From: Dehalococcoidia bacterium
GTDB lineage: Bacteria > Chloroflexota > Dehalococcoidia > DSTF01 > WHTK01
NCBI GenBank assembly: GCA_035714925.1
Contig: DASTLN010000226.1
Location: 1 to 55,698, forward strand
Reading direction: 5' to 3'
DNA: 55,698 nt
Shown: positions 1 through 17,566 of the stretch, piece after piece
Numbering within the stretch: the first letter of the stretch is position 1
Layout of the letters: every line of letters begins with the position of its first letter
Translations under genes and position numbers: made by a program
Notes under the pieces: generated by a model
The model's database searches: none
What the model saw: the letters and a program-made list of their open reading frames with translations, nothing else
Told to the model about the DNA's origin: nothing

Positions 1-476
1 TCCACACCGACAGCCAGGCAGACTCGTTGAACCGCGCCGTTAGCGCAGAGGCGTTCACGACCGGAAACGACATCTTCTTCCGCAGCGGTAGCTACAGCCC
101 CGGCAGCGACGATGGTCAGAAACTGCTGGCGCATGAGCTGACCCACGTGGTCCAGCAACGCAACGCCCCTCCGACTTCCGAGATGACCGTCAGCAGCCCG
201 GATGACGCCTCCGAGCGCGAGGCGAGCGCCGTCGCCGACTCCTATGGCTCGCAGTCTGCGGAGGCGGCCGCAGTGAGCCGGGAAGCGATGCCGGAGGAAG
301 AGGAGATGCTGCAAGGCTCCTTCGTCGACCGGCAGGGCATGGAGGAAGAAGAGCTGGTCCAAGGCTCCTTCATCGATCGGGAGAGTATGCCCGAAGAGGA
401 GGAAATGCTGCAGGGGTCCTACCTTGACCGGCAGGAGATACCCGAGGACGAGGAAGCCCGCCAGGACCAGGCCTGA
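1..476 (+). CDS. DUF4157 (eCIS core domain) protein, 5' partial, HExxH motif, acidic tandem-repeat tail
   Basis: The frame is open to the window edge, so the TTG at 27 is an ORF-caller artefact. The translation ..[52 protein letters not shown] matches the DUF4157 signature as I remember it (HT..A....A.AfT.G.dI.F....y.P....G..[12 protein letters not shown]). Stop is TGA at 474-476. Confidence 0.75.
288..455 (+). repeat. In-frame tandem peptide repeat, about 3 copies of M(P)EEEE(M/L)(L/V)QGS(F/Y)xDR(Q/E)x
   Basis: The copies read directly as [17 protein letters not shown] / [16 protein letters not shown] / [17 protein letters not shown], followed by a degenerate [12 protein letters not shown]. 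Confidence 0.85.
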
Positions 477-740
477 CGAAGCCCGCCTCGGCAACCATCC
501 TCGGGCTGATGGTCGAAGGCCCGAGCGCTCTCTTTCGACTCACCTACTAGACACGCCTCGTGCCGCCTAGGCATCTGCGTCGATTTGACGTGCCTCGAAA
601 GTCCGGCAAGTTAGCGATGGAGTGGGGTTAACTGCCCCCAGCACACGCGAGCCTGTCGCGAGCTTCAGCCCACGAAGCGGCCCGGCTCAATCCGCTTTCA
701 ATTTTTCCTCAATCGCCGCTGACTAATCTCCGGCATAGCG

Positions 741-1661
741 ATGCTAAACGAGCTCGACGAGACTCTAAAGACCCTGCTCTTGCAGGATCTTCCGCGCGTG
801 ACCGAGCGCATCGAAGCGGATGGCTTCGATGTGAGTTTCGATGTGCCGAATCGGGAGTTCCGGTCTCGACTGACACGGCCGACACTCTCGCTGTACCTGT
901 ACAACATCCAGGAGAACCGTGACCTGCGGGGACGGACCTGGGACCGGCGCCACGATAACGGCAGCGTGACCACGCACCGGCCGCCCGTACGCCTCGATTG
1001 CAACTACATGGTTACGGCATGGTCCAACGAGGTCGAGGACGAGCATCGCCTCCTGACGGGGGCGACACGCGTGCTGTTCCGCAATCCGATCTTGCCGGTC
1101 GACGTGCTGCAGGGCGAGTTGGCCGGAAACATCGAGATCATGACCGAGGTCGCGCAGCCGGAGAGCTTCAAGGACGTCGTCGACATCTGGAGCGTGCTCG
1201 ACAACGACCTGCATCCATCCGTGCGGGTTAAGATCACGATCCCGCTGGAACTCGATGTTGAATACACGACGCCATCAATAACGAGTCACGACATCGGGGT
1301 GGACGACCCGTCATGGCAACCTGGACCGACGCGACCGATGCGGATGTCGGGGCGAGTCGAGCGCGATGGGCAGCCCGTGGCGGGCGCCCTGGTACGCGCG
1401 GACACCTCATCTGCCACGACGGACGAAAACGGCGAATACACGCTGCGCAGCGTGACGCCGGGACGCCAGCTGCTGTTCGTGCGTGAAGGCGAAAACTTCC
1501 ATCAACTCGCAGTGGACCTGCCCCAGGACATCAACGTCACGCTACCGAGCGCAAACGACGAGGCCGGGGGCAGTGGTGAGAGCAACGATGACGACGACTC
1601 AACGCCGCCATCCGGCGGCAGCGAACGTCGGCGAAGACCAAGGAACCGAGAGCAGGAATAA
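741..1661 (+). CDS. DUF4255 (Afp16/Pvc16-like) tail terminator/cap protein with C-terminal carboxypeptidase-regulatory-like Ig domain and charged tail
   Basis: The N-terminus MLNELDETLKTLLLQDLP.. is typical of DUF4255. The C-terminal segment GRVERDGQPVAGALVRADTSSATTDENGEYTLRSVTPGRQLLFV fits the CarboxypepD_reg pattern. It sits directly upstream of the sheath gene, as in eCIS loci. Confidence 0.75.
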   Translation: MLNELDETLKTLLLQDLPRVTERIEADGFDVSFDVPNREFRSRLTRPTLSLYLYNIQENRDLRGRTWDRRHDNGSVTTHRPPVRLDCNYMVTAWSNEVEDEHRLLTGATRVLFRNPILPVDVLQGELAGNIEIMTEVAQPESFKDVVDIWSVLDNDLHPSVRVKITIPLELDVEYTTPSITSHDIGVDDPSWQPGPTRPMRMSGRVERDGQPVAGALVRADTSSATTDENGEYTLRSVTPGRQLLFVREGENFHQLAVDLPQDINVTLPSANDEAGGSGESNDDDDSTPPSGGSERRRRPRNREQE

Positions 1662-1706
1662 GGCCGGCGAAAGACGCTGGGCAAGGCTCCCCGAGGAGGA
1701 GAAGAG

Positions 1707-3314
1707 ATGCCAACAACCTATCAGGCACCAGGGGTCTACGTAGAGGAGGTACCGGGCGGTAGCCGGCCGATCGAGGGCGTCGGCACTTCGGTGGCGGCCT
1801 TCGTCGGCTTCGCCGAGAAGGGGCCTGTGGACGAGCCGGTCCGTGTCACCAACTGGACCCAGTACACGAACACGTTCGGCGGGTTCGTCAAGAGCGGCTA
1901 CATGCCGCTATCCGTCTACGGCTTCTTCGCCAACGGCGGCGGCAACGCCTGGGTGATCCGAGTCGGCGGTGACGTGGTTTCGACGCCCGCGATCGCGGCG
2001 CTACCGGCACGCGCCGGAGCCGAAGTGGACTCGCTACGAATCACCTCGAAGCTCACCGGCATGGACGCTAACGACATCACGGTCGAGATCGCAGCGGAAT
2101 CGCCCGCCGCGCCACCGGAGGAGCCGGCCGAAGGTGAATCCGCAGAAGCCAGCGGCGGCGGTGGCAGCGCCGAGGAGCCACGATTCCGGATCACGGTACA
2201 GCGGCCGGGCGGCGCCGCGGAGGTCTTCGACAACCTGACCCTGCGACGCGGTGACGCGCGCAACGCCGTGGACGTGATCAACGCCGAGTCCGGCTCGCAG
2301 TTCATCTCTATAGAGGACCTGGCGCCGCGCGGTCTGTCGATCGCCGACCGCGTGCCGACACCGGGCAACTACCCGCTCTCCGGCGGCACCGAAGCGCTGA
2401 CCTCCCTGGCGCCGTCAGACTTCCAGGGCTCCGTGGCAACGCGAAGCGGCATCGAAGGGCTGGAAGCGCTGGACGACGTGACGATGGTCCTGGCCCCGGA
2501 CATCATGAAGGCGTACCAGGACGGGCACCTGGACGTCGACGGCGTGATCTCCCTGCAGAAGGCGATGCTCGGCCACTGCGCGCGAATGGGCGACCGCGTC
2601 GCTATCCTCGACACACCGCCAGACCTGGACCCGACGCAGGTTGACGAATGGAAGACCAACATCGCACGCCTGATCTCGGACGACGGCTACGGTGCGCTCT
2701 ACTACCCCTGGATCAAAGTGGACGACCCCGCGATCAAGGGGACGAGCTTCATCCCGCCCAGCGGCCACATGGCCGGCGTCTGGGCCCGCACCGATAACCG
2801 CCGTGGCGTCCACAAGGCACCCGCTAACGAAGAGGTCATCGGGGCCATCGATGTCGAGACGAACGTCACGCACGCCGAGCTCGGGACGCTGAACGTCAAG
2901 AGCATCAACTGCATCCGAGCCTTCCCAGGCCGCGGCATTCGCGTCTGGGGCGCTCGCACCCTGGCCGAGGCGGCCTCCGAGTGGCGCTACCTCAACGTGC
3001 GTCGCTTGTTCAACTTCGTCGAGGCGTCAATCGAAAACGGCACGCAGTGGGTGGTGTTCGAGCCGAACGACCAGCGACTCTGGGGCGCGGTCAAGCGCGA
3101 CATCAGCGCCTTCCTGACGCGAGTCTGGGGGACCGGAGCGCTGTTCGGCACCACGGCATCTGAGGCGTTCTACGTCAAGTGCGACCGCGAGACTAACCCG
3201 CCGGAGATCATCGACGCCGGCATGATGGTCTGCGAAATCGGCATCGCGCCGGTGAAGCCGGCGGAGTTCATCATCTTCCACATCCGGCAGATCACGCCCG
3301 GGGCCACCGAGTAG
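1707..3314 (+). CDS. Contractile tail sheath protein (Afp2-4 / P2 FI-like)
   Basis: MPTTYQAPGVYVEEVPGGSRPIEGVGTSVAAFVG is the classic sheath N-terminus, and conserved C-terminal sheath blocks are present (INCIRAFPGRGIRVWGARTL). RBS GAGGAGGAG lies at 1693-1701. Confidence 0.93.
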   Translation: MPTTYQAPGVYVEEVPGGSRPIEGVGTSVAAFVGFAEKGPVDEPVRVTNWTQYTNTFGGFVKSGYMPLSVYGFFANGGGNAWVIRVGGDVVSTPAIAALPARAGAEVDSLRITSKLTGMDANDITVEIAAESPAAPPEEPAEGESAEASGGGGSAEEPRFRITVQRPGGAAEVFDNLTLRRGDARNAVDVINAESGSQFISIEDLAPRGLSIADRVPTPGNYPLSGGTEALTSLAPSDFQGSVATRSGIEGLEALDDVTMVLAPDIMKAYQDGHLDVDGVISLQKAMLGHCARMGDRVAILDTPPDLDPTQVDEWKTNIARLISDDGYGALYYPWIKVDDPAIKGTSFIPPSGHMAGVWARTDNRRGVHKAPANEEVIGAIDVETNVTHAELGTLNVKSINCIRAFPGRGIRVWGARTLAEAASEWRYLNVRRLFNFVEASIENGTQWVVFEPNDQRLWGAVKRDISAFLTRVWGTGALFGTTASEAFYVKCDRETNPPEIIDAGMMVCEIGIAPVKPAEFIIFHIRQITPGATE

Positions 3315-3365
3315 ACGGCTCCCGGACGATTGAAGCGGCTATAGGCATAAGCAAGGAGTAGAGAC

Positions 3366-3824
3366 ATGCCAGACTTCTTCATTCCCGGCTTGCAGGACCC
3401 CCACGTAGTACACCACTTCGCGCTGGAGGTTCAGGGTGACGTCAAGGGGACGTTCCAGGAATGCACCGGTATGGAAACCAGCAACGAGGTTATCGAGCAC
3501 CGAGAGACCGACTTGCAGGGCAAGCAGCAACTGACGAAGATCCCCGGCCAGCTGAAGGTGGGCGACATCACGCTGAAGCGCGGCGTGACAGACGATACCT
3601 TCCTCTTCGACTGGCGCCAGCAGATCCTCAACGGCCAGGTCGACCTCGCCCGCAAGGACGGCTCGATCATCCTCCAGGACTCGATGGACCAGCAGGTCGC
3701 GCGGATCAACTTCACGCGGGCCTGGCCTCAGAAGTACAAGACCGGAGACTTCAAGGCCACCGAGAACAGCATCCTGATCGAGGAGGTTACCCTCGCAGTC
3801 GAGATGATTGAGAGAGCTCCGTGA
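3366..3824 (+). CDS. Tail tube protein (T4 gp19 / Afp1-like)
   Basis: It is 152 aa and directly follows the sheath gene. The FALEVQGDV.GTFQECTGMET pattern is typical of the conserved phage tail region tube family. RBS AAGGAG lies at 3352-3357. Confidence 0.85.
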   Translation: MPDFFIPGLQDPHVVHHFALEVQGDVKGTFQECTGMETSNEVIEHRETDLQGKQQLTKIPGQLKVGDITLKRGVTDDTFLFDWRQQILNGQVDLARKDGSIILQDSMDQQVARINFTRAWPQKYKTGDFKATENSILIEEVTLAVEMIERAP

Positions 3825-4216
3825 CCAATCTCCAGACGGAGTTCGACTTCATCCTGCCGAGAGGCTACGTCGACCGCAGCGGCACTGTGCACCGAAAGGG
3901 CCGCATGCGGTTGGCGACGGCGATGGACGAGATCACGCCGTTACGCGACCCGAGGGTGAGGCAGAACCAGGCTTACCACACGATCATCCTGCTGGCCCGC
4001 GTGGTCACCGAGTTGGGGACGCTGCCAGCGGCCGATACAGGTGTGATGGAAGGGCTGTTCACTGCCGACCTCGCGTTTCTGCAGGAGCTCTACCGCACAA
4101 AAAACGAGCTGGTGGGGCCGGACGCCGGAGAGGTACGGTGTCCCGCCTGCGGCGAGCACTTCGTCCCGCTGGCCGATACAGCGGAGGCCGTGGCAAACGC
4201 TGGCCCTTTAGTGTGA
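3821..4216 (+). CDS. P2 gpE-like tail assembly chaperone with C-terminal CxxC element
   Basis: The GTG start overlaps the tube stop (GTGA). The pattern GRMRLATAMDEI...ILLARVVTELGTL..ADTGVMEGLFTADLAFLQELY resembles the gpE / Phage_TAC_7 pattern (LR.pT.gd...lia.l.......i..L...Dy..Lq..y). Its position between the tube gene and the tape-measure-position gene also fits. Confidence 0.6.
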   Translation: MTNLQTEFDFILPRGYVDRSGTVHRKGRMRLATAMDEITPLRDPRVRQNQAYHTIILLARVVTELGTLPAADTGVMEGLFTADLAFLQELYRTKNELVGPDAGEVRCPACGEHFVPLADTAEAVANAGPLV

Positions 4217-4249: not shown

Positions 4250-4461
4250 AGATGTTGGGCCGGACCTGGGGCTCGGTTGGATACGACGAGTCGCAGATTT
4301 CGGAGGAGGTGGCGTACATCGCGTACCACTTCCACTGGCCGCTGGAGCAGATCCTGGAGCTGCAGCACTCCGACCGCCGTCGCTGGGCTCAGCTGATCAG
4401 CGGGATCAACGAGCGGATGAACGAGGAGGCCGGCAATCTGATGACGGCTTCCGGCCGGTAG
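4213..4461 (+). CDS. Small ORF: either an independent 69-82 aa protein or the E'-like -1 frameshift extension of the chaperone
   Basis: The frame is open from upstream. Candidate starts are GTG 4213 (GTGA overlap) or ATG 4252, and neither has a convincing SD. The translated tail GYDESQISEEVAYIAYHFHWPLEQILELQHSDRRRWAQLISGINERMNEE looks like a real folded peptide, unlike the Arg/Pro-rich upstream part of the same frame. Confidence 0.55.
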   Translation: MSGQEGEEPWPFQMLGRTWGSVGYDESQISEEVAYIAYHFHWPLEQILELQHSDRRRWAQLISGINERMNEEAGNLMTASGR

Positions 4462-4473
4462 CACAGAGGAACC

Positions 4474-4641: not shown

Positions 4642-4644
4642 ACG

Positions 4645-5091
4645 ATGACGACCTTGCCGGGCAACGACGTCACCAGCAAGACGGCGGCCACTCAGCGCTT
4701 CTCGGTCGAGATAGATGGCTCGATCGCGGCGACCTTCAGCGAGTGCTCCGGCCTTGCGGTGCAGATCGCCACGGAGAAGTACGAAGAGGGCGGCGATAAC
4801 GGCGTGACGCTGAAGTTCCAGGGCAGGGTCGATTACACGAACATCGTGCTCAAACACGGCATTACGGAGTCAGCCGACCTGTTCGACTGGCTGTTGAGGA
4901 TCGTTCGGGGCGAATATGCCCGCAAGAACATTTCGGTCCGGGTCCTGACTTCAGACCTCTCGGAGATTCGCAGCTGGCAGTTCAAGGGCGCGTTTCCCGT
5001 GAAGTGGACAGGGCCAACACTCAATGCGACGTCGAGCTCGATCGCGATTGAAACGCTGGAGCTGGCACACGAAGGGTTTGTGACGGTCTAA
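4645..5091 (+). CDS. Second tail tube paralog (Afp5-like)
   Basis: It is 148 aa. The segment FSVEIDGSIAATFSECSGLAV...ITLKHGITES.DLFDWL parallels the first tube protein (FALEVQGDVKGTFQECTGMET...ITLKRGVTDDTFLFDW). Confidence 0.85.
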   Translation: MTTLPGNDVTSKTAATQRFSVEIDGSIAATFSECSGLAVQIATEKYEEGGDNGVTLKFQGRVDYTNIVLKHGITESADLFDWLLRIVRGEYARKNISVRVLTSDLSEIRSWQFKGAFPVKWTGPTLNATSSSIAIETLELAHEGFVTV

Positions 5092-5092
5092 C

Positions 5093-6976
5093 GTGACGAA
5101 CGAGAGAGATGGGCGGCCGATGTGGGGACGGCGGGACTGGTCCGGCTTGGCCCTCCGCCGCGCCAGCCGATGGCAGAGCCGCGGGACGGCACCGCGACCG
5201 GCATCGATCGGGCGGACGGTGAGGCAGCCCACGCTGCGACTCTTCGGTGCCGGGGCGCATCCGGGTCTGTCCATGGCGACCGCGCTGCCACGCTCGCTAC
5301 CGCTGGTCTTACGCCTGAAGCCGCCTGTGCGACCCGTCGGTCCCCCAATGCTGACAGTGCAAAGCAGCCTGCCCGCCGAAGCCGGCCCGAGCGCCCAACT
5401 GCCTGCTTTCAGCGGAGTAACGGCCAGCCAAACCGAAACGCAAGGCGTAGCGCCCGTGCCGGAGCCGCCGCGGGTGCAGGAGAAGCCCTCGCTGGTCAGC
5501 CAGGCTCTGCGGATATTGCGTAGGCAGGCTCCGCCAGCCGAGACAGAGCAGCCTCAGCCGTCTCCAGCGGTGGCAACGGGGGTAACTCCCGACGAAGCGG
5601 CACCCGCCGAGCCCGCGCGCTCCAGCGTCGAGACGCCAACACCGGCTCCGGTCGCTACTCGGCGGGCAGCACCGGCGCGGCCTGAGACACCGCGGGTCCT
5701 GCGACACACGACAGAGGCGCCTGCGGAGGCCACTTCGGAGCTGCCGGGAATCGCGCGTCAGCCGGAAGCACTGGATGCGCCGCAAAGACAGATTGCGAGC
5801 GCGCCGGAAGTCATCGAGGCTGAACAACCGACCGTGGCCGCAGAGAGGCCAACACCGCCCATGCCGAATTCTCAGAGGGCAGCGGGGCCTCGGCGCAGCG
5901 GCCTGCTTTATACCGTGCGGCGCGTCCTGCAGCGCGAGCCGACCAGCGCCGCTTTGGAGCCCGCAACACCGCAGGCGGCAAGCAGCGCATCGTCGCAGGC
6001 CCCATCCCCTCTCGCGAGCGAGCGCCAGGCAACGCCGAGGGAGACGCCGTCAACCGAGCCGGCGGCGCAAGAGGCGGGACCGCAGCGACACGAGACGGCA
6101 CAGGCGCCGGCCTACGCCGAGACGCCGCCACGCGGCGAGACGAATCCGCAGCCGGCCAGGCGCAGCGGGCCGTTGCTGACGTTGCGGCGGCTGTTCCGCC
6201 CCGATCCAGAGCCACCCGTTGAACGGCGGTCGGAGCTAGGCCAGGCCTTCACGTCCGACTCGCGTGAACCGGTGGTCCAACCGCACACACTCCGCGAGGA
6301 CCGGCTACCCGGCGAGCTGTTGCTGACTCCCGGAACACCGGCTCCGGCGACGCCGGTGATGCGCTCCGAGACCACCGAGACCGTGCGGGCGCTGGCGCGA
6401 CCACGGGCGGTCCAAACGGCCGGTTCGGCCGCGACCTCGGCCGCTACGGCAGCGACTCTCCAGGAGACGGCGACGACCCAGACGAGCCCAACGGCGAACT
6501 CACCTTCAACCGTGGTCGCCGAGCCGGTAGGGAGATCGGCTTCCGTGCCTACCGTGGACCGCAGCGACGCGGCAGGAACACGGACACGCGCGGCGCCGCG
6601 TTCGATGGTCTCGCCGCCGGCAACGTCTTTGGTGTACCTGGCCCGCAAGCCTTCGGCCGCGGCAGGGCGCGTTCCGGAGGGCATGACCACGTTCGAGGTA
6701 CCCCAGGAAGACCTGCGGTCGCTGGGGATCGCGGCGGCAGGCGACCCGGATCGAGGGGGCGATGTGCGGACGATCGCACGGGCCGTGTCGGTGTCAGATG
6801 TTGCCGCCGCAAGAGGCGCCACGGACGCCGCGAATGGCGACGAGACGAACGGCGAAGCCTCGCGAGGTGAGGTCAACCTGGAAACGCTAGCGCGACGGGT
6901 CTACGACCGTATACGCAATCGCCTGCGCATCGAGCGCGAACGCAGCGGGCTGAGCTCCGGGATTGTGGGCCGATGA
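5093..6976 (+). CDS. Pro/Ala/Thr/Glu-rich low-complexity protein in the tape-measure position (Afp14-like by position only)
   Basis: This is a long ORF between the second tube gene and the LysM gene. The start is uncertain: GTG 5093 or ATG 5273 (MATALPRSLPLVLRLKPP). Three basic motifs are present (SQALRILRRQ, RRSGLLYTVRRVLQ, RRSGPLLTLRRLFR), along with a conserved-looking C-terminus LETLARRVYDRIRNRLRIERERSG. Confidence 0.6.
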   Translation: MTNERDGRPMWGRRDWSGLALRRASRWQSRGTAPRPASIGRTVRQPTLRLFGAGAHPGLSMATALPRSLPLVLRLKPPVRPVGPPMLTVQSSLPAEAGPSAQLPAFSGVTASQTETQGVAPVPEPPRVQEKPSLVSQALRILRRQAPPAETEQPQPSPAVATGVTPDEAAPAEPARSSVETPTPAPVATRRAAPARPETPRVLRHTTEAPAEATSELPGIARQPEALDAPQRQIASAPEVIEAEQPTVAAERPTPPMPNSQRAAGPRRSGLLYTVRRVLQREPTSAALEPATPQAASSASSQAPSPLASERQATPRETPSTEPAAQEAGPQRHETAQAPAYAETPPRGETNPQPARRSGPLLTLRRLFRPDPEPPVERRSELGQAFTSDSREPVVQPHTLREDRLPGELLLTPGTPAPATPVMRSETTETVRALARPRAVQTAGSAATSAATAATLQETATTQTSPTANSPSTVVAEPVGRSASVPTVDRSDAAGTRTRAAPRSMVSPPATSLVYLARKPSAAAGRVPEGMTTFEVPQEDLRSLGIAAAGDPDRGGDVRTIARAVSVSDVAAARGATDAANGDETNGEASRGEVNLETLARRVYDRIRNRLRIERERSGLSSGIVGR

Positions 6977-6998: not shown

Positions 6999-7649
6999 AT
7001 GGCGCTGATGAAGGCCCTGATGATGGCGGTCGACCCGCCGGGCGGTCAGATCATCTTCCAGTACAACCCGACCAAGTACTCGGTGAAGAAGTCGGTCGAG
7101 TGGAAGGCGGGCGAGCAGAAGGGCGCAAACGTGCCGCCGCTGGAGTTCGTCAAGGGTAGCGGCCGCGAGGTCATGATGGAGCTCTTCCTCGACGACCTGC
7201 AAGGGGAGTCGGTGCGGACGGTGCTGGACCAAGTGGCGCAGCTCGACGTCTATACGCGGCCCAACATGCTGAACGTCTGGGCTTCAGGCAAGCCGCGACC
7301 GCCGCGCGTCATGTTCATCTGGTCCAACGTGCACGCGAACTTCCGGGCCGTGATCACCGGCATGACGGTTAACTACACGATGTTCCACGACGACGGACGG
7401 CCTTCGCGCGCCACGGTGAACCTGACGCTCAAGGAGTGGCACGACACGCTGCTGCCGCAGAACCCGACCTCGATGGGGAGCGCCGGTATGAGGACGCACC
7501 GCGTGATCGGCGGCGAGACGCTGGACACGATTGCGTTCCAGGAGCTGGGGTCGGCGGCTCAGTGGCGTCACATCGCGGAGCTAAACAACATTGACGACCC
7601 GCTGTCGATCTGGCCGGGTCAGCATCTGATGATCGCGCCGCCGAGGTAA
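6999..7649 (+). CDS. LysM-domain tube-initiator/baseplate hub protein (Afp7 / P2 gpX-like)
   Basis: ATG at 6999 has AGGAGG at 6984-6989, so the TTG 6963 start in the track is rejected. The C-terminal LysM pattern is HRVIGGETLDTIAFQELGSAAQWRHIAELNNIDDPLSIWPGQHLMI. Confidence 0.85.
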   Translation: MALMKALMMAVDPPGGQIIFQYNPTKYSVKKSVEWKAGEQKGANVPPLEFVKGSGREVMMELFLDDLQGESVRTVLDQVAQLDVYTRPNMLNVWASGKPRPPRVMFIWSNVHANFRAVITGMTVNYTMFHDDGRPSRATVNLTLKEWHDTLLPQNPTSMGSAGMRTHRVIGGETLDTIAFQELGSAAQWRHIAELNNIDDPLSIWPGQHLMIAPPR

Positions 7650-7651
7650 TC

Positions 7652-9423: not shown

Positions 9424-9867
9424 ATGAACGACCACGCCAGCGGGAAAGAAATACTCGGTGTCGGATGGAACTTCCCGATCCGCGTCGACAGGCGACTGGA
9501 TACCGAGTTTGCGGCGCCGTACCGCGGCAGCGGCGGCATCGCCCTGTCGCGGCACGAGGAGGACATCGAGCAGGCGATCAGCATCGTGCTCTCGACGGCA
9601 AAGGGCGAACGCCGCATGCGGCCGACCTTCGGCTGCGACATCCATACGTTGGTCTACTCACCGGCCAACTCGTCGACGTTCAGTCTGATGCACGTCTACG
9701 TCGAGGAAGCGCTTCGGATGTGGGAGCCACGGATCGATGTCAGGGACGTGGGGATCACATCAGAAAACATCGACGGCCGGGTGGACATTACGGTCAGCTA
9801 CGAGGTCCGCACGACAAAGGATGCACGGACGCTGGTCTATCCCTTCTACATGTTAGGAGAGGACTAA
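9424..9867 (+). CDS. GPW/gp25 baseplate wedge protein (Afp9-like)
   Basis: GWNFPIRVD...IEQAISIVLSTAKGERRMRPTFGCDIHTLVYSP matches the gp25 family pattern. Confidence 0.88.
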   Translation: MNDHASGKEILGVGWNFPIRVDRRLDTEFAAPYRGSGGIALSRHEEDIEQAISIVLSTAKGERRMRPTFGCDIHTLVYSPANSSTFSLMHVYVEEALRMWEPRIDVRDVGITSENIDGRVDITVSYEVRTTKDARTLVYPFYMLGED

Positions 9868-9869
9868 TC

Positions 9870-11858
9870 ATGACGATGCAAGTGACGGAGCGGCGGCTGG
9901 ATTTGCGCGACTTCCAGGACATTGTCGACGAGGCGAAGCGCCTGATCCCTCGCTACTGCCCGGAGTGGACCGACCACAACGTCAGCGACCCCGGCGTGAC
10001 GCTTATCGAGCTGTTCGCCTGGATGACGGAGATGATCCTCTACCAACTCAATCGCCTGCCGGATGAGATGCACGAGCATTTCCTCGACCTGATCGGGGTG
10101 CAGCTCCGCCCGCCGGAGCCTGCTACGGTGGACATCACCTTTTACCTCTCGAAGCACCTGACGCAGCCGCTGGAGATCCCCACAGAAACGGAGATCGCAA
10201 CAGAGCGGACGGACGTTCAGGACGCAATCGTCTTCGCGACGACGAAGGCACTCAAGATGGAGCCGCCGCGGTTGGCGGGCCTGCGGGCCTGGCGCGAGGG
10301 CCAAGGCTTCGAAGACTACATGCCCTATGTCGCCAGCGGGCTGGTCGACGCGCCGATCTTCAACCAGGAGCCGGTCGACGGCGACGCGCTTTATATCGGC
10401 CTGCAGGGCGACCTCGGGGGCTCTAGCCTGGCGTTGCGCCTGGAGTGCCGAGAGCTCGAAGGCGTACACATCGACCCGAAAAATCCGCCCCTCGAGTGGG
10501 AGTACTGGTCCGCGAGCACGCAGATGTGGACACCGTTGCGGGTGTTGCACCAGTCGGGTACGGGACGGCTGCGTGAGCCGATGACGACCGATCCGACGCA
10601 TGGTCTCAACCGCGATGGCGACGTCTTCGTGAACATCCCCGTCGACTCTGCGCCGCGGGCGATCGATGGTATTGAGGCGACGTGGCTCCGCATTCGCTAC
10701 GTGCAAGAGGAAGGCCCCGGCTATACGGCATCTCCACGAATAACGGGCCTGCGTGCCGACCGCATCGGTGGGACCGTGACGGCGCGCCAGTCACAGCGAA
10801 TCAACGAGCTCGTGCTGGGCAAAGCCTCTGGAGAGCCCGGCGACCGCTTCACCGTGGCGCAGCGACCGATTTTGCGCAGCCGTGAACCGCACGTCATCGA
10901 GGCGAGATTAGGGGAAGACGTCACGACGTGGGTGGAGGTCGAAGACTTCTCGCTGTCCGGCGAGAGCGACCGGCACTTCATGATCCACTATCCCAGTGGC
11001 GAGATCCGCTTCGGCCCCGGCATCCGTTCCCGCGATGGTACCGAGCGTCAGCACGGCGCCGTGCCGCGAACCGGCGCTGACCTCGTGCTGCTGACCTACT
11101 ACACAGGCGGCGGCACGCGCGGCAACGTCGGCGAGCGGACGATCACGCAGATGAAGACCTCGATCCGGTACATCTCCGGCGTGACGAACTACGCACCGTC
11201 GATCGGTGGCCTGGACGAGGAGACGATCGGCGAAGCGAAGCTGCGCGGCGTGGCCGAGCTGAAGCACCCGGTGACGGCGGTAACCCGCGAGGACTTCGAG
11301 CTGCTGGCCGCGCAGACTCCCGGCGTGGGCGGTGCACGCTGCATTGCTCCCGGCGAAACGGGCGGCACGCCAGGCGTAATCCGGCTGCTGCTTCTACCCG
11401 ATCTCCCCGGACCGGACGTGGAGCTGACTCCGGAGCTAATGGTGCCCTCGCCTGCGCTGCTGCAGGCCGTGGGCGAGGTTGTCGAACAGCGGCGGAGCCT
11501 GGGCACGGTAGTCGAGATGGCGCCTGTGTCCGTCGTCTGGACGGAAATCGATGCGCACATCTACGTCAACCGCGGCATCGACGTCGACGAGGCGCAGAAG
11601 ATAGCAGAGGAGCGGCTACGGCGCCTGATGCACCCCACGATCGGTGGCGTGCAGGGCCAAGGCCTGTCCTTCGGCGGCGCTATCACGATGTCGCAGATCG
11701 CCGGGTCGCTGCAAAGCGTACAGGGCGTCGTCTACGTGGAGCGGGTGCTGTTGCGGCGGCAAGGAGACCCGGCGGAGCAGACGCGTATCCAGCCCTCGCC
11801 CGACTCCGTGCTGGCGCTGGGCCGCTGCTACGTCCTGGCCGAGGTCTTGGAGGACTGA
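9870..11858 (+). CDS. Baseplate J-like protein (Afp11 / P2 gpJ-like)
   Basis: ATG at 9870 follows AGGAGAGGA. The upstream 135 codons of the track ORF overlap the gp25 gene and are Arg-rich noise. The N-terminus is FQDIVDEAKRLIPRYCPEWTDHNVSDPGVTLIELFAWMTEMILYQLNRLPD, and a C-terminal TREDFE block is present. Confidence 0.88.
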   Translation: MTMQVTERRLDLRDFQDIVDEAKRLIPRYCPEWTDHNVSDPGVTLIELFAWMTEMILYQLNRLPDEMHEHFLDLIGVQLRPPEPATVDITFYLSKHLTQPLEIPTETEIATERTDVQDAIVFATTKALKMEPPRLAGLRAWREGQGFEDYMPYVASGLVDAPIFNQEPVDGDALYIGLQGDLGGSSLALRLECRELEGVHIDPKNPPLEWEYWSASTQMWTPLRVLHQSGTGRLREPMTTDPTHGLNRDGDVFVNIPVDSAPRAIDGIEATWLRIRYVQEEGPGYTASPRITGLRADRIGGTVTARQSQRINELVLGKASGEPGDRFTVAQRPILRSREPHVIEARLGEDVTTWVEVEDFSLSGESDRHFMIHYPSGEIRFGPGIRSRDGTERQHGAVPRTGADLVLLTYYTGGGTRGNVGERTITQMKTSIRYISGVTNYAPSIGGLDEETIGEAKLRGVAELKHPVTAVTREDFELLAAQTPGVGGARCIAPGETGGTPGVIRLLLLPDLPGPDVELTPELMVPSPALLQAVGEVVEQRRSLGTVVEMAPVSVVWTEIDAHIYVNRGIDVDEAQKIAEERLRRLMHPTIGGVQGQGLSFGGAITMSQIAGSLQSVQGVVYVERVLLRRQGDPAEQTRIQPSPDSVLALGRCYVLAEVLED

Positions 11859-12469
11859 TGACGGCCGAGCTTCTGCCGCAGACGTACACCAATGGCTTGT
11901 CCGGGAACGGCGGCCTCTATCCCGAGGATGAGGGCCTGGCCGCGACGCTGCCCAGCGCGTACCTGCGCTTCCTGCCCGCGATTTACTGGCAGGACTCGTT
12001 CATGGGGCGCTTCCTGCGTATTTTCGAGGACGTCCTCTCGCCGATTCAGACCAACGTGAGCCGGCGCGCCGACCAGTTCGACCCGGCGGTGGCGTCGCAG
12101 CCGCTTCTGCGCTTCATGGCGACATGGGTGGGCGCCAACGACCTCGGGGAGCTCCCAGAGCAGGAGCTTCGCGGCCTTGTACGGCGAACAGTGCGGCTGA
12201 ACCAGCTGCGCGGCACAAAAGCCGGCCTGCGGATGGCGCTGGAGACGATTACCGGCAAGCGTCCCTACATCACGGAGTACTCGGCCGGTCTGGTGCTGGG
12301 TGAGGATGCTGTGCTCGGCCTGAACACCTCCTTGCAAAGCGGCAGGCCGCTACAGATTCATGTTCTGTTCAATTGTGACGAAGATGAAGTAGACACCTCA
12401 TTAGCGCATGCTATAATTCGACGCTATAAACCCGCCGGAGCTGAATATAGCATTTCGTTCTTGACCTAG
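11858..12469 (+). CDS. P2 gpI-like tail/baseplate protein (N-terminal part of Afp12-type proteins)
   Basis: The start overlaps the upstream stop (TGATG). YLRFLPAIYWQDSFMGRFLRIFEDVLSPI and the C-terminal IIRRYKPAGAEYSISF fit the conserved phage-tail-region protein I family. Confidence 0.8.
   Translation: MTAELLPQTYTNGLSGNGGLYPEDEGLAATLPSAYLRFLPAIYWQDSFMGRFLRIFEDVLSPIQTNVSRRADQFDPAVASQPLLRFMATWVGANDLGELPEQELRGLVRRTVRLNQLRGTKAGLRMALETITGKRPYITEYSAGLVLGEDAVLGLNTSLQSGRPLQIHVLFNCDEDEVDTSLAHAIIRRYKPAGAEYSISFLT
12390..12417 (+). promoter_or_regulatory. Candidate sigma70-type internal promoter TAGACA-16 nt-TATAAT
   Basis: TAGACA at 12390-12395, a 16-nt spacer, then a perfect TATAAT at 12412-12417. 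It lies in a conspicuously AT-rich patch at the 3' end of the gpI-like gene, about 68 nt upstream of ATG 12485. Confidence 0.45.
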
Positions 12470-12484
12470 GGTTCGGACTTCCTG

Positions 12485-13687: not shown

Positions 13688-13751
13688 AATGGGGTTGCAG
13701 GACAGACTCATTGTCCATGCCCAGCAATGCTAAAGCTTAGTTGGTGAGCTG

Positions 13752-15554
13752 TTGCCGCAATCCCCTCTGATTCAGGTTTCGATCGAACCCGAAAGCCGGA
13801 GCGCGACCCCGGGCCAGCGGGTCGAATTCATCATTACCGCTGAAAACACGGGGAACGAGCCGCAGGCTCAGACCATCGAACTGATGGGCCTGCCGAACGC
13901 CTGGTACACGATCAACTTCGACACCAGCGAGCGCGCGCTGCCGGGCGAGAAACGCAGCGGGATGCTGGTCATCTCGGTACCGGCAACGATTAGCGGTGGC
14001 AGCTACGAATTCGACGTTGCGGTGCTGTCCGGCTCCGCCGAAAGCTCCGCCAGCGGCTCGATTGCGGTCGGCAGCGCGCTACCCGAACCGCCGCCCGCCG
14101 AATCACCGCCCGCTGAGCCCGCGCCCGACTCGGCGACCGTGGCGCCAGTGAAAACAGACGCGTTAGCGCCGATCGTGAGCCTCGAAGGCGGCCTGGTGAT
14201 ATGGCGTGGCCAGGGTTCCCCGGAGCGCAAGAGCCTGACGATCAGCAACCCGGGAAGCGTCGAGACGGAATACAACATCGAGGTTGAAGGCCTGGAGCAA
14301 GGTTGGTACACGGTGCTCAACCGCGCTCGTGTCGGACCGGGCCAGGAGCTGCAGACCGACTTTTCCATCCACCCGCCGAGCGGCGCACGGCAGCAGGATT
14401 ACCCCTTCCGCCTTAACGTCAGCGTGGACGGGCAATCCGGCCTGCGCAGCGAGGCGTCCGGCTGGCTGTCGATCCCTTCGGGCATGACATCGACTGCGCC
14501 GACGCCCACCACCTCACCCACACCGCCGGCCCCGCAGCCCGAACCGCCGCGGCCCTCGGCGCCGGAAGGCGTCTCGCCGCCGGACGTGGTGCTCTCGCCA
14601 CGGTCCAATTTCAGCTTCGGGCGCGCGGAGGCGGTGGCGCAGGCGCTGGTCACCGTTTATAACCGCAGCAAGGTCCGGGAGCGCTACCGCATCGTGGTCA
14701 ACGGCCTACCGGAAGACTGGTACCTGCTTTCGGACGCCGACATTCGGCTCGACCCGGGTGAGAACCGCCAGGTATCGCTTCGACTGGCGCCGATTACGGG
14801 TCCGAGTACGCCTGCCGGCGAGTACGAGTTCCTGGTCCGCGCCGTGCCGGACGGCATCGAGACCTACTTCGGCGAAGCCCTCGGCGTGCTTTCGATCGCG
14901 GGCGTGCCGAGATATGAGGCGCGCCTGGACCCGCTCGAGGCGGAAGGAACGCGCCGCAACTACAACGTTCGAGTCGAAAACACCGGCGATACCAGCCTGC
15001 AGCTGACGCTAAACGCCAGCGATCCGGAAGGGCGCTGCAAGTTCAAGGTCCCGCCGCCGCGCAACCTGGATCCGGGCCAAGTCGGGCTAATTCAGCTGAG
15101 GATAGGTGCGAAACGCAACGGCATCATCGGGGCGTCCGAAACGTTCGACTTCCGAGTCCGAATTGAGTCGGACGATGCAGAGGTCCAGACGAGCAAGGAC
15201 ACCTTCGACGGCCGCTTTGTCCATCATCCCAAGATCTCCTATCGCGCGGTGTTTATCGTCGCTTTCATGTGCGCGCTGGTGGGCCTGGTATTCCTTCTCG
15301 TCTGGGCCTTCTCACCGACTTTCGAGCGCGCCGGCGAATGGGTTGGCTGCCAGCTCGACCGGGACTACCGCCTGTCCAGCGACACACGGCTGCTACGCAA
15401 GGAGTCCTGCGATGGCAGGCCTCGAGAGCAAGAGCTGGACGAATGGCAACGCGAACGGCAGGAGAGCACCACGCGACTCTCGATTGATGACGAGGTAACC
15501 CTGGTCTACCCACCGGCCTTGGTCCCACCTGCAGCGATCTGGCGGGCCGACTAA
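13752..15554 (+). CDS. Membrane-anchored protein with four Ig-like (CARDB/NEW3-like) domains, no signal peptide, single C-proximal TM helix
   Basis: TTG start follows GGTGAG. Four roughly 100-aa modules carry the recurring G(L/I)P..WY motif, separated by Pro-rich linkers. The TM helix is AVFIVAFMCALVGLVFLLVWAF, followed by an approximately 80-aa Cys-containing tail. Confidence 0.7.
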   Translation: MPQSPLIQVSIEPESRSATPGQRVEFIITAENTGNEPQAQTIELMGLPNAWYTINFDTSERALPGEKRSGMLVISVPATISGGSYEFDVAVLSGSAESSASGSIAVGSALPEPPPAESPPAEPAPDSATVAPVKTDALAPIVSLEGGLVIWRGQGSPERKSLTISNPGSVETEYNIEVEGLEQGWYTVLNRARVGPGQELQTDFSIHPPSGARQQDYPFRLNVSVDGQSGLRSEASGWLSIPSGMTSTAPTPTTSPTPPAPQPEPPRPSAPEGVSPPDVVLSPRSNFSFGRAEAVAQALVTVYNRSKVRERYRIVVNGLPEDWYLLSDADIRLDPGENRQVSLRLAPITGPSTPAGEYEFLVRAVPDGIETYFGEALGVLSIAGVPRYEARLDPLEAEGTRRNYNVRVENTGDTSLQLTLNASDPEGRCKFKVPPPRNLDPGQVGLIQLRIGAKRNGIIGASETFDFRVRIESDDAEVQTSKDTFDGRFVHHPKISYRAVFIVAFMCALVGLVFLLVWAFSPTFERAGEWVGCQLDRDYRLSSDTRLLRKESCDGRPREQELDEWQRERQESTTRLSIDDEVTLVYPPALVPPAAIWRAD

Positions 15555-17566
15555 TGGTCCAGAGCACGCGTTCGCCCGATCTCCACCTCGACGTCTCACC
15601 CGACTCGCAGCGGGTGGAACGCGGCAACGAGGTCGTCTTCCTCGTCACCCTGGAGAACCGCGGCCGCGAAGCGCAGGCGCAGAGCCTGACGGTAAGCGGC
15701 CTACCCAGCGAGTGGTGCACCCTGGAGTTCGACACGCGTCGCCGCGTGTTTCCGGGAGAGCGCCGGACCGCGAGCCTGCTAGTCCAGGTGCCGGCAAGCG
15801 TCAACGCCGAGTACCACGATTTCGCGATCACAGCAAAAGCCGGCGCCGCCGAAAGCACCGCCGCCTGCAAGCTGGAGGTTACTGTACCGGGGCAGGTCGC
15901 ACCGCAGCCGCCCGCGCCGGAGCCTCCTCCTCCTACGGCACGACCGCCGGCGCTCTCTCTCAGCCCGACGGACGTGACCTGGCGCGGAGAGGCGCAGGGT
16001 GAGGAGACGCTGCGTCTGTCCGTGCGCAATGTGGGTACTGAAGATTCTGTCTACAACGTCTTGCTGGAGGGGCTGCCAGAACACTGGTACACGCTGGACG
16101 CACAAGTCAGCGTGCCCGGCGCCCGGGCTACCGACGTACAGCTCAAGATCAACCCGCCGGCACAAGCACGCCAGGGCAACTACACGCTGACAATCGCGGC
16201 GACGCTGCAGAGCGACTCCTCGGTACGCGGCGAGGTACGCGGCACGCTGACAATCGCGGCGCCGGAGCCCGTGTCGGCGCCGCAGCGCACGGTCGCGCCT
16301 GTCAGCATTCCCGAGACGCGAGAAGTGGAGCATACAGGCCCACCCGTAATGCCGCCGCGCGTGACGCTGGGACCGAGAACGACGTTTCGCTTCGGGCCGG
16401 GCGAGGTAACAGCCCAGGCGACGATCACTGTCGAAAACCAGAGCACCTCGATCGAGCGCTATCTAATCATGGTGCGCGGCATCGACGAGGGCTGGTACGA
16501 GATGGACAACCGCGAGGTGTCGCTCCAGCCCGGCGCGAGCATCGTCGTGCCTCTGCGACTCATGCCACGGACGGGTGGTCAGTTCCCGGCCGGCGACTAC
16601 AGCTTCCGGGTCCGTGTCGCGCCGTACCAGTTCCCCGATGCCTACGCGGAGCAGGTCGGCACGCTGGCAATCGCGGGGCAGGTCAGCTTCGACGCGCGCG
16701 TAACGCCCAACCGCCGCACGGGCCGCAAGGAGAAGTACAAGCTCACGCTGCTCAATACCGGCGGCCTCCCCTTCAGCCCCTGGCTGGAGGCATCCGACCC
16801 ACACGGTATGTGCAAGTTCAAGTACAACGCCCCGAGTAGCCTGGATGTCGGAGAGGAAGCCGTCGTGCCGATCTGGGTCGGCGCGACGCGTCAGGGCTTT
16901 GCCGGCCGGCCGCTAACGCTGGACTTCCGCCTGCGGGTCAGTCCCGCGGGAGGCGGCTCTTCATCGGCGCGCACGTTCGACGCGAGCTTCATCCACCAAC
17001 CCTTCCTGGGTCAGCGGATGTTCATCTGGTTTATGGGCCTGGCGGTTATCGCTGCGATCGTTGGGGTGCTGTTCGTGATCGGGTTCTCTAGTGTGGAGTC
17101 TGCCGTTACGTCAATCAAATGTGGATTCGACGACGACTACCAGGAGGTGCCGGGCGGCCCGGTGCTGGTCAAAGAGGAGTGTGGCGGCGCGCCGACGGTG
17201 TTACAGAAGGGTTTCTTCTCGCCATCCGGCGGTGGGCAGCTCACGACGCCGACCGTGGAACCCAGCGCCACGACGACGGTGACACCGGTGCCGGGTGAGA
17301 CCGAAGTGCCGGCGGGCGCCTGCGTCGCGGACGCAGACCTCGGTTTGGCCGTCAACGACCCGGTCAAGCTGCGAAACGACGCGGTCATCCGGGACGCGCC
17401 GGCGGGCAACGATACGGGCAGGCGAGGACTCAACCAGGACGGCGTAATCACGGCGGGTCCGGAGTGCACCAACAACCTGGTCTGGTGGGAAGTTGACGTC
17501 GCCGGCCAGAAGGGCTGGACGGCGGAGCAGACCGAGGACGAAATCCGGCTGATCCTGGAGCCCTAG
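15554..17566 (+). CDS. Paralog of the preceding protein: four Ig-like domains, TM helix, C-terminal SH3b-like domain
   Basis: The start overlaps the upstream stop (TAATG). It is collinear with the 13752 product (for example ASDPHGMCKFKY versus ASDPEGRCKFKV). The TM helix is MFIWFMGLAVIAAIVGVLFVIGF. The C-terminus VKLRNDAVIRDAPAGNDTGRRGLNQDGVITAGPECTNNLVWWEVDVAGQKGWTAE fits the bacterial SH3 pattern (W.eV...g..GW). Confidence 0.7.
   Translation: MVQSTRSPDLHLDVSPDSQRVERGNEVVFLVTLENRGREAQAQSLTVSGLPSEWCTLEFDTRRRVFPGERRTASLLVQVPASVNAEYHDFAITAKAGAAESTAACKLEVTVPGQVAPQPPAPEPPPPTARPPALSLSPTDVTWRGEAQGEETLRLSVRNVGTEDSVYNVLLEGLPEHWYTLDAQVSVPGARATDVQLKINPPAQARQGNYTLTIAATLQSDSSVRGEVRGTLTIAAPEPVSAPQRTVAPVSIPETREVEHTGPPVMPPRVTLGPRTTFRFGPGEVTAQATITVENQSTSIERYLIMVRGIDEGWYEMDNREVSLQPGASIVVPLRLMPRTGGQFPAGDYSFRVRVAPYQFPDAYAEQVGTLAIAGQVSFDARVTPNRRTGRKEKYKLTLLNTGGLPFSPWLEASDPHGMCKFKYNAPSSLDVGEEAVVPIWVGATRQGFAGRPLTLDFRLRVSPAGGGSSSARTFDASFIHQPFLGQRMFIWFMGLAVIAAIVGVLFVIGFSSVESAVTSIKCGFDDDYQEVPGGPVLVKEECGGAPTVLQKGFFSPSGGGQLTTPTVEPSATTTVTPVPGETEVPAGACVADADLGLAVNDPVKLRNDAVIRDAPAGNDTGRRGLNQDGVITAGPECTNNLVWWEVDVAGQKGWTAEQTEDEIRLILEP

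Follow-up and report, generated by a model that had tools for sequence, protein, structure and literature searches.

Positions 1-18594 of the 55,698-nucleotide stretch analyzed here ("the window": contig DASTLN010000226.1 of the Dehalococcoidia bacterium assembly GCA_035714925.1) hold most of a chromosomal contractile injection system (CIS), which, judged from best hits and gene content, is very probably of the class-IId type, the cytoplasmic CIS of Streptomyces. Sixteen tightly packed genes fill the + strand from 1 to 17566, and a convergent gene for a SARP-type activator follows them (Table 1). An initial annotation, made from the sequence without database searches, had described thirteen consecutive + strand genes and placed the end of the locus at 17566; the consecutive array and its end stand, but the count rises to sixteen with the DUF6760 gene, the gene for a 400-aa protein and two membrane-protein genes, and the locus itself runs about 1 kb further, through the SARP gene to 18594. 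Many neighboring genes overlap by 1-4 nt, as that annotation had seen (GTGA at 3821, ATGA-type junctions at 9864 and 11858, TAATG at 15554). Profile searches recover the cap, sheath, tubes, LysM protein, VgrG, gp25, J and Tail_P2_I in the order proposed there, with Pfam matches above the gathering thresholds for all but LysM, which lies below its threshold.

Table 1. Features of the CIS locus and its right-hand neighbor, in window coordinates (E, expectation value; PDB, Protein Data Bank entry and chain; TM, transmembrane)
Feature	Coordinates	Strand	Evidence
DUF4157 / eCIS_core gene, 3' part, with HExxH motif	1..476 (off left edge)	+	Pfam PF13699 E 1e-19
Putative SARP-dependent promoter	687..729	+	Three TCAAT at 11-bp spacing (687-713); -10-like TAATCT (724-729); cap ATG at 741
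Cis16/Afp16-type cap (Pvc16_N / DUF4255) with CarboxypepD_reg beta-sandwich and charged tail	741..1661	+	Pfam E 3e-35, 8e-9; PDB 9gts_0A (CIS-Sc) E 1e-22
Sheath (Cis2)	1707..3314	+	Pfam Phage_sheath_1 and 1C, E 2e-19 / 5e-18; best PDB 8bky/9gtp
Inner tube (Cis1a)	3366..3824	+	Pfam Phage_T4_gp19 E 8e-35
Conserved zinc-ribbon protein of class-IId loci	3821..4216	+	Weak Zn_ribbon_4 / MJ0042_CXXC matches
DUF6760 small protein	4252..4461	+	Pfam PF20546 E 1e-15; start chosen is ATG 4252; same position in Streptomyces cluster
Second tube paralogue (Cis1b, tube initiator layer)	4645..5091	+	Pfam gp19 E 1e-41
Pro/Ala-rich protein in tape-measure position	5093..6976	+	Position only
Cis7, CIS_tube + LysM baseplate hub / tube initiator	6999..7649 (reading frame opens 6963; likely start ATG 6999)	+	Pfam CIS_tube E 2e-23, LysM E 9e-4
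VgrG-like spike (Cis8; Phage_base_V / GPD)	7652..9415	+	Pfam E 5e-18; PDB 9gtr_q E 6e-53
gp25-like sheath initiator (Cis9)	9424..9867	+	Pfam E 4e-24
Baseplate wedge protein J (Cis11)	9864..11858	+	Pfam Baseplate_J E 1e-16; PDB 9gtp_1K E 1e-111, nearly full length
Tail_P2_I / TssG-like wedge protein (Cis12)	11858..12469	+	Pfam E 2e-5; TIGR02242 E 2e-24; PDB 9gtp_E E 5e-16
Fibre-position protein, 400 aa	12485..13687	+	AlphaFold2 model, Foldseek, CIS13_fam match; position after Tail_P2_I
Sco4256-family single-pass membrane protein A	13752..15554	+	Pfam; AlphaFold2 pLDDT 80; TM prediction; hhalign
Sco4256-family single-pass membrane protein B	15554..17566	+	Pfam; TM prediction; paralogue of A
SARP-type activator (Trans_reg_C + BTAD), convergent with operon	17563..18594	-	Pfam BTAD E 3e-19
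Candidate accessory protein, 644 aa	18791..20725	+	N-terminal TM anchor; weak Peptidase_C39_2-like match (Pfam E 1e-3); Pro/Thr linker; Ig-like C-terminus

Relationship to class-IId systems

For five of the proteins, the sheath, Cis8, Cis11, Cis12 and Cis16, the best sequence match among solved structures is CIS-Sc, the system of S. coelicolor and S. venezuelae (8bky, 9gtp, 9gtr, 9gts). The sheath matches the Streptomyces CIS sheaths over its full length (8bky/9gtp, E 3e-152, 511 bits; 8bl4/9gts, E 2e-149), compared with at most 189 bits, confined to the C-terminal domain, against the sheaths of the Photorhabdus virulence cassette (PVC), the antifeeding prophage (Afp), AlgoCIS and the thylakoid CIS (tCIS). 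Gene order is shared with a CIS cluster on a Streptomyces plasmid, whose proteins are 30-52% identical to those of the window and which runs DUF4255, ATPase, sheath, tube, zinc-ribbon protein, DUF6760, long protein, tube, LysM, VgrG, PAAR, gp25, J, I. Because of the CIS-Sc matches of the five proteins and this order, the locus can be regarded as a class-IId relative. The class-IId cytoplasmic CIS was described by Casu et al. 2023 and 2025 and Vladimirov et al. 2023 (PMC10066040, PMC10020575), and the class was extended to Roseiflexus, other Chloroflexota and Deinococcota by Gaisin et al., ISME J 2026 (PMC12998442). The earlier description of the locus as Afp/PVC-type holds at the superfamily level, where the likeness to the Serratia and Photorhabdus systems covers the cap, sheath, tube, Afp7/8/9/11 and AAA+ ATPase components, but the closer kinship is with CIS-Sc. 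Unlike Afp/PVC, the window has one sheath rather than three, Tail_P2_I rather than Afp12, neither an adenovirus-like fibre nor PAAR, and other cargo families. The idea that missing parts mark a strongly non-canonical CIS gives way as well: protein by protein, the locus matches the described Streptomyces-type class.

By its sequence relations the host is a Dehalococcoidia-like member of the Chloroflexota, from a mesophilic soil lineage according to the titles of the metagenome-assembled genomes (MAGs). Its sheath is 79-82% identical to those of three MAGs (two labeled Dehalococcoidia and one 'Chloroflexia'), 48-51% identical to actinobacterial sheaths (Streptosporangiaceae, Actinocrinis) and about 45% identical to Chloroflexia-class sheaths (Kouleothrix, Chloroflexaceae; related loci L019-L021, in the numbering used here for the loci compared). 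Our literature search on CIS in Dehalococcoidia returned no relevant paper. The Streptomyces-type cytoplasmic CIS, so far studied in Actinomycetota, thermophilic Chloroflexia and Deinococcota, can now be placed in a soil Dehalococcoidia-like lineage as well.

Several of the smaller products bear on earlier identifications. The protein at 3821..4216 had been called a gpE-like chaperone, an identification that we reject, as neither profiles nor PDB matches support it and a zinc-ribbon signal is all that it gives. With the 'zinc-ribbon domain-containing protein' in the same place of the Streptomyces CIS cluster it shares 51% identity, and 50-80% identity is found across phyla. The long Pro/Ala-rich protein does occupy the tape-measure position, but a family identity for it finds no support: Pfam and NCBIfam give no match, and it can be aligned to its relatives only at its two conserved ends, residues 1-155 and 503-627. 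The Tme-type CIS of Streptomyces davawensis (PMC11126660) likewise combines a long protein in this position with an association with DUF4157; unlike there, the long protein of the window has no DUF4157 domain, TM helices or nuclease domain, and DUF4157 is carried by a separate protein of 256 aa. The orthologues of Cis7 measure 212-217 aa. Residues 202-306 of the cap form an extra CarboxypepD_reg domain followed by a strongly charged tail, both common to the Dehalococcoidia relatives; the Streptomyces cap has neither, and its alignment to the window cap ends near residue 181.

All of the structural proteins are homologues of phage tail proteins and their order is P2-like, which would suit the tail module of a decayed myovirus prophage, or an R-type tailocin, but such an origin is highly improbable. 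Pfam searches reveal no capsid, portal, terminase, integrase or lysis genes in the 55.7 kb, and the flanks of the relatives that were examined have none either. The Pvc16_N cap, DUF4157 and DUF6760 genes are specific to extracellular CIS (eCIS) gene sets, the relatives encode an Afp15-type ATPase, and the locus is kept intact among genomes differing by up to 50% in protein sequence. GC content is even along the whole window, the locus having that of the surrounding chromosome. The initial annotation had judged likewise, from the lack of capsid, terminase and portal genes and, for the tailocin, from the lack of lysis genes in the window; the uniform composition it had read as a sign against an obviously recent import.

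The left edge, the ATPase and the missing PAAR

The window starts inside the DUF4157 gene, as there is no upstream stop codon; the gene that the initial annotation had placed upstream of the particle genes is confirmed and runs off the left edge. Its full product, read from L001 (55-825), has 256 aa and consists of a disordered N-terminus, the DUF4157 domain and a short C-terminus of acidic repeats. These acidic units correspond to a 48-nt (16-aa) tandem repeat at 297-401 of the window. The AlgoCIS tube cargo proteins Cgo1 and Cgo2 are likewise made of a disordered N-terminus and DUF4157 (bioRxiv 10.64898/2026.05.27.728243), and the DUF4157 protein is, by its domain layout, of the same cargo-type architecture.

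No match to the ATPase is present anywhere in the window. Each of the five close relatives (L002, L003, L004, L005, L007) encodes, upstream of its DUF4157 gene, a protein with winged-helix and AAA domains (WHD+AAA, Afp15-type, 714-730 aa), and since the window starts inside the DUF4157 gene, the absence is best seen as an effect of the window edge. The initial annotation was correct that the window lacks the gene, and its suspicion that the ATPase lies further upstream agrees with the relatives; a true absence does not. In L007 the ATPase gene directly precedes the DUF4157 gene, and in L003 and L004 two to four variable genes stand between them. At 186-7830 of L004 and 5397-7100 of L003 these include a gene for a 1081-aa putative metallopeptidase (DUF922 + DUF6782), and the same variable regions hold a 713-aa partial paralogue that is 32% identical to it over about 230 aa. 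The variable genes are possibly exchangeable cargo, and the equivalent region of the window would lie off its left edge.

PAAR, also reported absent, is truly lacking from the window and its sub-clade. Gp25 starts 8 nt after the VgrG stop codon, so that there is no space for a PAAR gene. The same tight junction is found in the close relatives L002-L004 and L007, and also in L010, L011 and L015; most other related loci have a PAAR or DUF4280 gene in a gap of 390-770 nt between VgrG and gp25. A PAAR gene displaced elsewhere within the 55 kb was considered and rejected, since a tblastn search of the window and the close relatives, with seven PAAR/DUF4280 queries taken from related loci, gave nothing below E 0.04. 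L070, a locus with a distant member of the 400-aa protein family, does contain a PAAR gene, and the absence therefore looks like a loss. There is a precedent within Streptomyces, where Cis10/PAAR is found in S. venezuelae only and the CIS of S. coelicolor has neither PAAR nor a conventional fibre (PMC10066040).

Membrane proteins A and B are homologues of reported effectors of the Sco4256 type

The last two genes of the array encode single-pass membrane proteins, A and B, that are 32% identical paralogues, with B translationally coupled to A through the TAATG junction. The model of A (pLDDT, the predicted local distance difference test score, of 80) shows four ASH/PapD-like immunoglobulin (Ig) beta-sandwich domains, a TM helix at 497-519 and an 80-aa tail; the ectodomain of B is longer, about 150 aa, and contains Cys residues. 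An SH3-like C-terminal domain suspected by eye in B was dropped, as Pfam is empty at E<=0.1. Neither protein has a signal peptide. Because of this, of the single TM helix and of an invariant Cys pair beyond it (C533/C553 in the family alignment), the predicted topology is N-in, C-out.

Weaker homologues of A and B, built of two Ig domains followed by a TM helix and a C-terminal domain, adjoin the actinobacterial CIS loci L011-L015 and L017. The Actinocrinis homologue matches Streptomyces plasmid genes annotated 'hydrolytic protein', 'RICIN domain-containing protein' and 'hydrolase', including one of S. cattleya pSCATT; Sco4256 is itself listed as 'hydrolytic', and pSCATT is among the Sco4256 homologues of Vladimirov et al. 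(PMC10020575). With the Streptomyces CIS-adjacent 'hydrolytic protein' standing in for the Sco4256 sequence, hhalign aligns it to the A/B family profile at 98.8% probability (E 7e-17), over Ig domains 3 and 4 and the TM helix with the order kept. The top Foldseek matches of the A model are ciliary ASH/PapD-like Ig arrays, including chain 7sqc_T0, and HHpred returned the same entry for domain 1 of Sco4256 (PMC10020575). Members of the Sco4256 family combine an Ig-like domain with a TM helix and a C-terminus that varies; the family is reported to be almost confined to IId loci and to occur in Chloroflexi, with several homologues in Roseiflexus, and Sco4256 itself, like Sco4242, co-purifies with the particles (PMC10020575). 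Sco4256-4258 are reported to be toxic in E. coli, and a mutant lacking all three to have empty tubes and the same phenotype as one without the CIS (PMC10066040, Casu et al.). On the profile and domain evidence, A and B are homologues of this effector family. The initial annotation saw no recognizable effector, a view that we revise: because A and B match the Sco4256 family and the DUF4157 protein matches a cargo architecture, these three proteins are probable payload candidates. In practice, an 'unusual membrane protein' encoded beside the baseplate genes of a CIS deserves comparison with the Sco4256 family before the locus is called payload-less.

The module Tail_P2_I, 400-aa protein, A, B and convergent SARP gene recurs in L063 (from the L003 genome), L064, L065 and L069. 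The module of L068, a locus that matches the L007 lineage, lacks the SARP gene at that end, and the L007 locus has a SARP homologue upstream instead. Across L063, L064, L065, L068 and L069 the identity of A falls to 43%. The genes beyond SARP differ between loci, and since the SARP position is kept in L063, L064, L065 and L069 while the flanks differ, the SARP gene marks the right boundary of the locus.

The Ig module of A and B is also found in other settings. A single open reading frame (ORF) at 2658-5978 of L008, just upstream of the CIS ATPase gene, encodes FHA, two Sco4256-type Ig domains, a TM helix, a Peptidase_C39_2-like domain and Big_3_5; in P0022 a Ser/Thr kinase and FHA are followed by the same Sco4256-type Ig module. 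The fusions support a cytoplasmic location of the Ig arrays and hint at a signaling or platform role for them.

A shoulder-type protein in the fibre position

The 400-aa gene lies directly 3' of Tail_P2_I in every locus seen. The AlphaFold2 model of its product, built with 40 homologues (pLDDT 83), opens with a helix and a beta domain (about 1-175), continues with an alpha/beta domain (about 180-360) and ends in a disordered tail. Top Foldseek PDB matches of the N-domain are 7b5h chains AA/AB/AC, several TssK structures and a phi812 baseplate protein (E about 1e-3, probabilities 0.99-1.0). Chains AA/AB/AC form a trimeric tCIS baseplate chain set of 700-729 aa that we take to be the Cis19 crown. 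Against BFVD, a database of predicted viral structures, the model gives 35 matches at E<=1e-3, the best at 2e-7, and those with names are mostly 'Receptor Binding Protein' or 'Tail fiber protein', over about 140-175 residues. The NCBIfam family CIS13_fam matches residues 27-145 at E 1e-7, far under the family cut-off. The C-domain is DUF4159, weak in the window protein itself and pre-computed for many homologues, and its Foldseek matches are flavodoxin-like. On the predicted structure, the protein is a fibre-derived baseplate protein with a shoulder fold like that of receptor-binding proteins (RBPs) and TssK, without a shaft or a receptor-binding domain. The initial annotation had reported no Afp13-like tail fibre and had not annotated this gene, by which the fibre position is occupied. 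The N-domain corresponds to the 'shoulder-like' baseplate-anchor domain named eBAP3/4 by Levy and co-workers, who tie it to Tail_P2_I baseplates (PMC12923769).

The architecture is widespread. An exhaustive profile search gives 240 clusters at E<=1e-30, mostly of 360-400 aa, that match end to end with the same two-domain layout, and the two distant family members that were looked up both directly follow Tail_P2_I; the idea of a clade-specific novelty was rejected on this count. His residues H29, H32, H39 and H44 of the N-terminal helix and Cys residues C266 and C327 of DUF4159 are invariant in the family and may form a metal or catalytic site. Tme-type loci also carry shoulder+DUF4159 proteins: in one such distant locus, L073 (9227-14251), the protein is followed by a 1674-aa CHAT-TPR protein, with no Ig membrane proteins, which indicates that the gene after the shoulder+DUF4159 protein varies between CIS lineages. 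The 400-aa protein was also considered, and rejected, as a homologue of CisA (hhalign probability of 0.3% against the CisA-type protein of the Streptomyces plasmid cluster, which has zinc ribbons, a disordered region, a TM helix and a C-terminal sugar-binding-like domain). CisA (Sco4242) is itself missing from 21-25% of Streptomyces loci (PMC10066040, PMC10020575).

Could the protein be a short fibre of a conventional extracellular CIS? The particle would then be released by lysis of some of the cells, with the 400-aa protein as a minimal fibre, the DUF4157 protein and the products of genes between it and the ATPase gene as cargo, and A and B serving release, immunity or something unrelated. 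We consider this unlikely. The matches of the N-domain to phage RBPs, tail fibres and the CIS13 family fit it, as does a Nat Commun 2026 catalogue that counts shoulder-type (eBAP3) proteins after Tail_P2_I among the fibres, 'minimal attachment-only modules' included (PMC12923769). AlgoCIS carries DUF4157 proteins as cargo in its tube, and L003 and L004 have variable genes, putative metallopeptidases among them, in the stretch from the ATPase gene to DUF4157. Against this reading, the 400-aa protein lacks both a shaft and a lectin or receptor-binding domain at its C-terminus, where the flavodoxin-like DUF4159 stands; no holin or endolysin is present in the window or in the relatives' flanks examined; the nearest characterized systems are intracellular; and the translationally coupled A/B pair is strictly syntenic with the baseplate genes.

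The TssK matches raise a different possibility, a membrane-docked machine resembling the type VI secretion system (T6SS). The particle would be assembled inside the cell, attach to the cytoplasmic membrane and discharge at that site or outward through the envelope, with the 400-aa protein as a TssK-like trimeric connector on Tail_P2_I, and with A and B, their small ectodomains disulfide-bonded, as membrane receptor or anchor, not lumen cargo. The T6SS baseplate (TssK-TssF-TssG) does resemble the window, its TssF2-TssG wedge comparing with (J)2-I and the shoulder fold of TssK with the next protein, and the pairing of Tail_P2_I with eBAP3 has been compared with TssG/TssK in the literature (PMC12923769). 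Both TssK and the presumed tCIS crown protein are among the top Foldseek PDB matches; the lack of a signal peptide in A and B, with one TM helix and the invariant Cys pair, would put their Ig domains inside and their C-termini outside; in L008 the Ig module is flanked by a cytoplasmic FHA domain and the TM helix, and in P0022 it comes after a Ser/Thr kinase and FHA; the genes occupy the slot held in Streptomyces by the membrane adaptor CisA; and Sco4256 and Sco4242 both co-purify with particles. The FHA/kinase-Ig fusions recall the FHA/kinase control of T6SS assembly. Nonetheless this docking is quite unlikely. The Foldseek PDB E-values are marginal (about 1e-3) and concern the shoulder domain only, shoulder+DUF4159 proteins also occur in CIS loci without Ig membrane proteins (L073 is one), and the empty tubes of the Streptomyces Sco4256-58 triple mutant argue for cargo. 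Unlike a T6SS, the window has no TssB/C split sheath, TssM/L/J, TssA, TssE-specific features or ClpV, and the ATPase of its relatives is Afp15-type; Pfam finds none of the families TssB/C, TssJLM and ClpV in the window, where the sheath is single and phage-type, in agreement with the initial statement, from the lack of TssB/C/M genes, that this is not a T6SS. Were docking true, the Sco4256 family would act as a platform for docking or triggering, in some cases linked to FHA/kinase signaling, instead of or besides lumen cargo, and would form an independently arisen functional analogue of the T6SS membrane complex.

The tCIS of Anabaena (7b5h) offers another comparison, as it acts from inside the cell with fibre-derived proteins repurposed for membrane contact, and the N-domain of the 400-aa protein resembles its chains. 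There the anchor is a TM helix in Cis13 together with an extension of Cis12, unlike in the window, where the fibre-position protein is soluble and the TM helices belong to separate proteins. The tCIS sheath is also much more distant from that of the window (182 bits).

A SARP gene and its predicted operator

Among five loci, the 264-nt spacer between the DUF4157 and cap genes has a single alignable block: CTCAATCCGCT TTCAATTTTTC CTCAATCGCC. This is a box of three TCAAT repeats, with the TAATCT element beginning 8 bp after the third heptamer. A classical SARP operator consists of three heptameric direct repeats with 4-nt spacers, overlapping the -35 region (PMC10972967). The elements that define a SARP operon, a gene encoding BTAD and Trans_reg_C domains and three TCAAT at 11-bp spacing, are both found at this locus and kept in relatives. 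The exact threefold pattern occurs once in the window, compared with 0.01 expected. When 1.25 Mb of related loci were scanned with at most one mismatch, the box appeared only at the cap gene of L001, L002 (2648-2674), L003 and L005 (3956-3982), before the ATPase gene of L003 (2890-2916) and before one L007 ORF, of 585 aa and unknown function (822-848); L004 has the block with a 1-nt deletion in one spacer. A scan of 400-1800 for sigma-70 promoters and terminators gave no hits, and the SARP-type promoter emerged from the alignment of intergenic DNA. The box is the predicted operator through which the SARP would activate the structural operon. The Streptomyces and Actinocrinis loci have a LuxR-type regulator gene in place of SARP. 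A conserved SARP with its three-repeat box would tie a regulator family of antibiotic clusters to a cell-death machine.

How might the particle act?

How would a particle with this gene set meet a membrane and fire? We propose, with a probability of about 0.6, that this is a IId-type CIS that acts from inside the producing cell at its own membrane. The SARP would bind the three TCAAT repeats overlapping the -35 region and switch on the operon from cis16 and the sheath gene onward, and in the relatives probably the ATPase operon too. Particles would assemble in the cytoplasm, aided by the ATPase, which would also load the DUF4157 protein, the Sco4256-type proteins or both. The shoulder-DUF4159 protein would replace CisA as the adaptor on the baseplate side, and the particle would fire at or near the producer's own cytoplasmic membrane under stress, leading to death or lysis of the producer as in Streptomyces. 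Action from inside the producer is suggested by the apparent lack of receptor-binding fibres and by the lack of lysis genes. Taken on its own, the intracellular and self-directed mode, which is drawn by analogy, could go either way.

A number of points weigh against this proposal. The class label was derived from best hits and gene content rather than from a tree including the dbeCIS references, and the cytoplasmic, self-directed mode is carried over from Streptomyces and Roseiflexus. Firing in CIS-Sc depends on CisA, of which the window has no homologue. The 400-aa protein, with an RBP-type shoulder domain and an architecture present in many other CIS loci, could be a short fibre of an extracellular particle. 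Binding of the SARP to the TCAAT repeats is a prediction. The host DNA known 5' of position 1 amounts to 349 bp, from a 2,258-bp contig (L001) matched by exact-protein look-up, and the ATPase is expected from its presence in the five relatives. The Ig domains of A and B, four in each, are folded, and neither protein starts with a disordered loading sequence; with the Ig module fused to FHA and kinase domains in relatives, a membrane platform would fit at least as well as lumen cargo.

Compared with CIS-Sc, the window shares the gene order, including the zinc-ribbon and DUF6760 genes, the lack of PAAR (with S. coelicolor) and the presence of Sco4256-family proteins in the locus; a conventional fibre is apparently lacking in both, though the 400-aa protein of the window has the fibre-type shoulder domain. 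Unlike the window, CIS-Sc has CisA, and the slot after Cis12 is taken in the window by the soluble shoulder+DUF4159 protein; the Sco4256-type proteins of CIS-Sc have two Ig domains and are encoded near the ATPase and cap genes, whereas those of the window have four, lack a ricin/lectin domain and follow the baseplate genes; the CIS-Sc regulator is LuxR-type rather than SARP; its cap is without the CarboxypepD_reg domain; and the window has in addition a separate small DUF4157 gene. The CIS of Roseiflexus and other Chloroflexota and Deinococcota resemble the window in being IId-related, in part from the same phylum, and in reportedly having no close cisA homologues (PMC12998442). Particles of the Roseiflexus clade were imaged free and unanchored in the cytoplasm (PMC12998442). 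Chloroflexia-class loci differ from the window in their distant sheaths and in a PAAR gene between VgrG and gp25, and the host of the window would, from the MAG titles, be mesophilic rather than thermophilic.

The kind of system is known, and the variant is coherent and kept in at least six loci. It is marked by the absence of CisA and PAAR, four-Ig Sco4256-type proteins behind the baseplate genes, the widespread shoulder+DUF4159 protein, SARP control and the extended cap. The Streptomyces and Roseiflexus papers leave open how membrane contact and firing come about; a version without CisA and PAAR but with a fixed module could be viewed as a natural experiment on how intracellular CIS meet the membrane and fire.

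Genes beyond the locus

The other 35 kb of the window encode housekeeping functions: a MacB/FtsX permease, a histidine kinase, a MiaB-like radical SAM enzyme, EPSP synthase, TerC, PAC2 and tRNA-Phe. At 21164-23036 on the - strand, past the locus, are genes for a class-A beta-lactamase-family protein and a secreted CAP/SCP-domain protein, with no evident link to the CIS. Closer to the SARP gene, the 644-aa protein may be an envelope-side accessory protein of the system, its membership being suggested by homologues that adjoin the CIS loci of L003, L007 and L008; in L008 the homologous part is the C39_2-like ectodomain of the FHA-Ig fusion. Its Pro/Thr-rich linker contains tandem repeats at 20017-20088.

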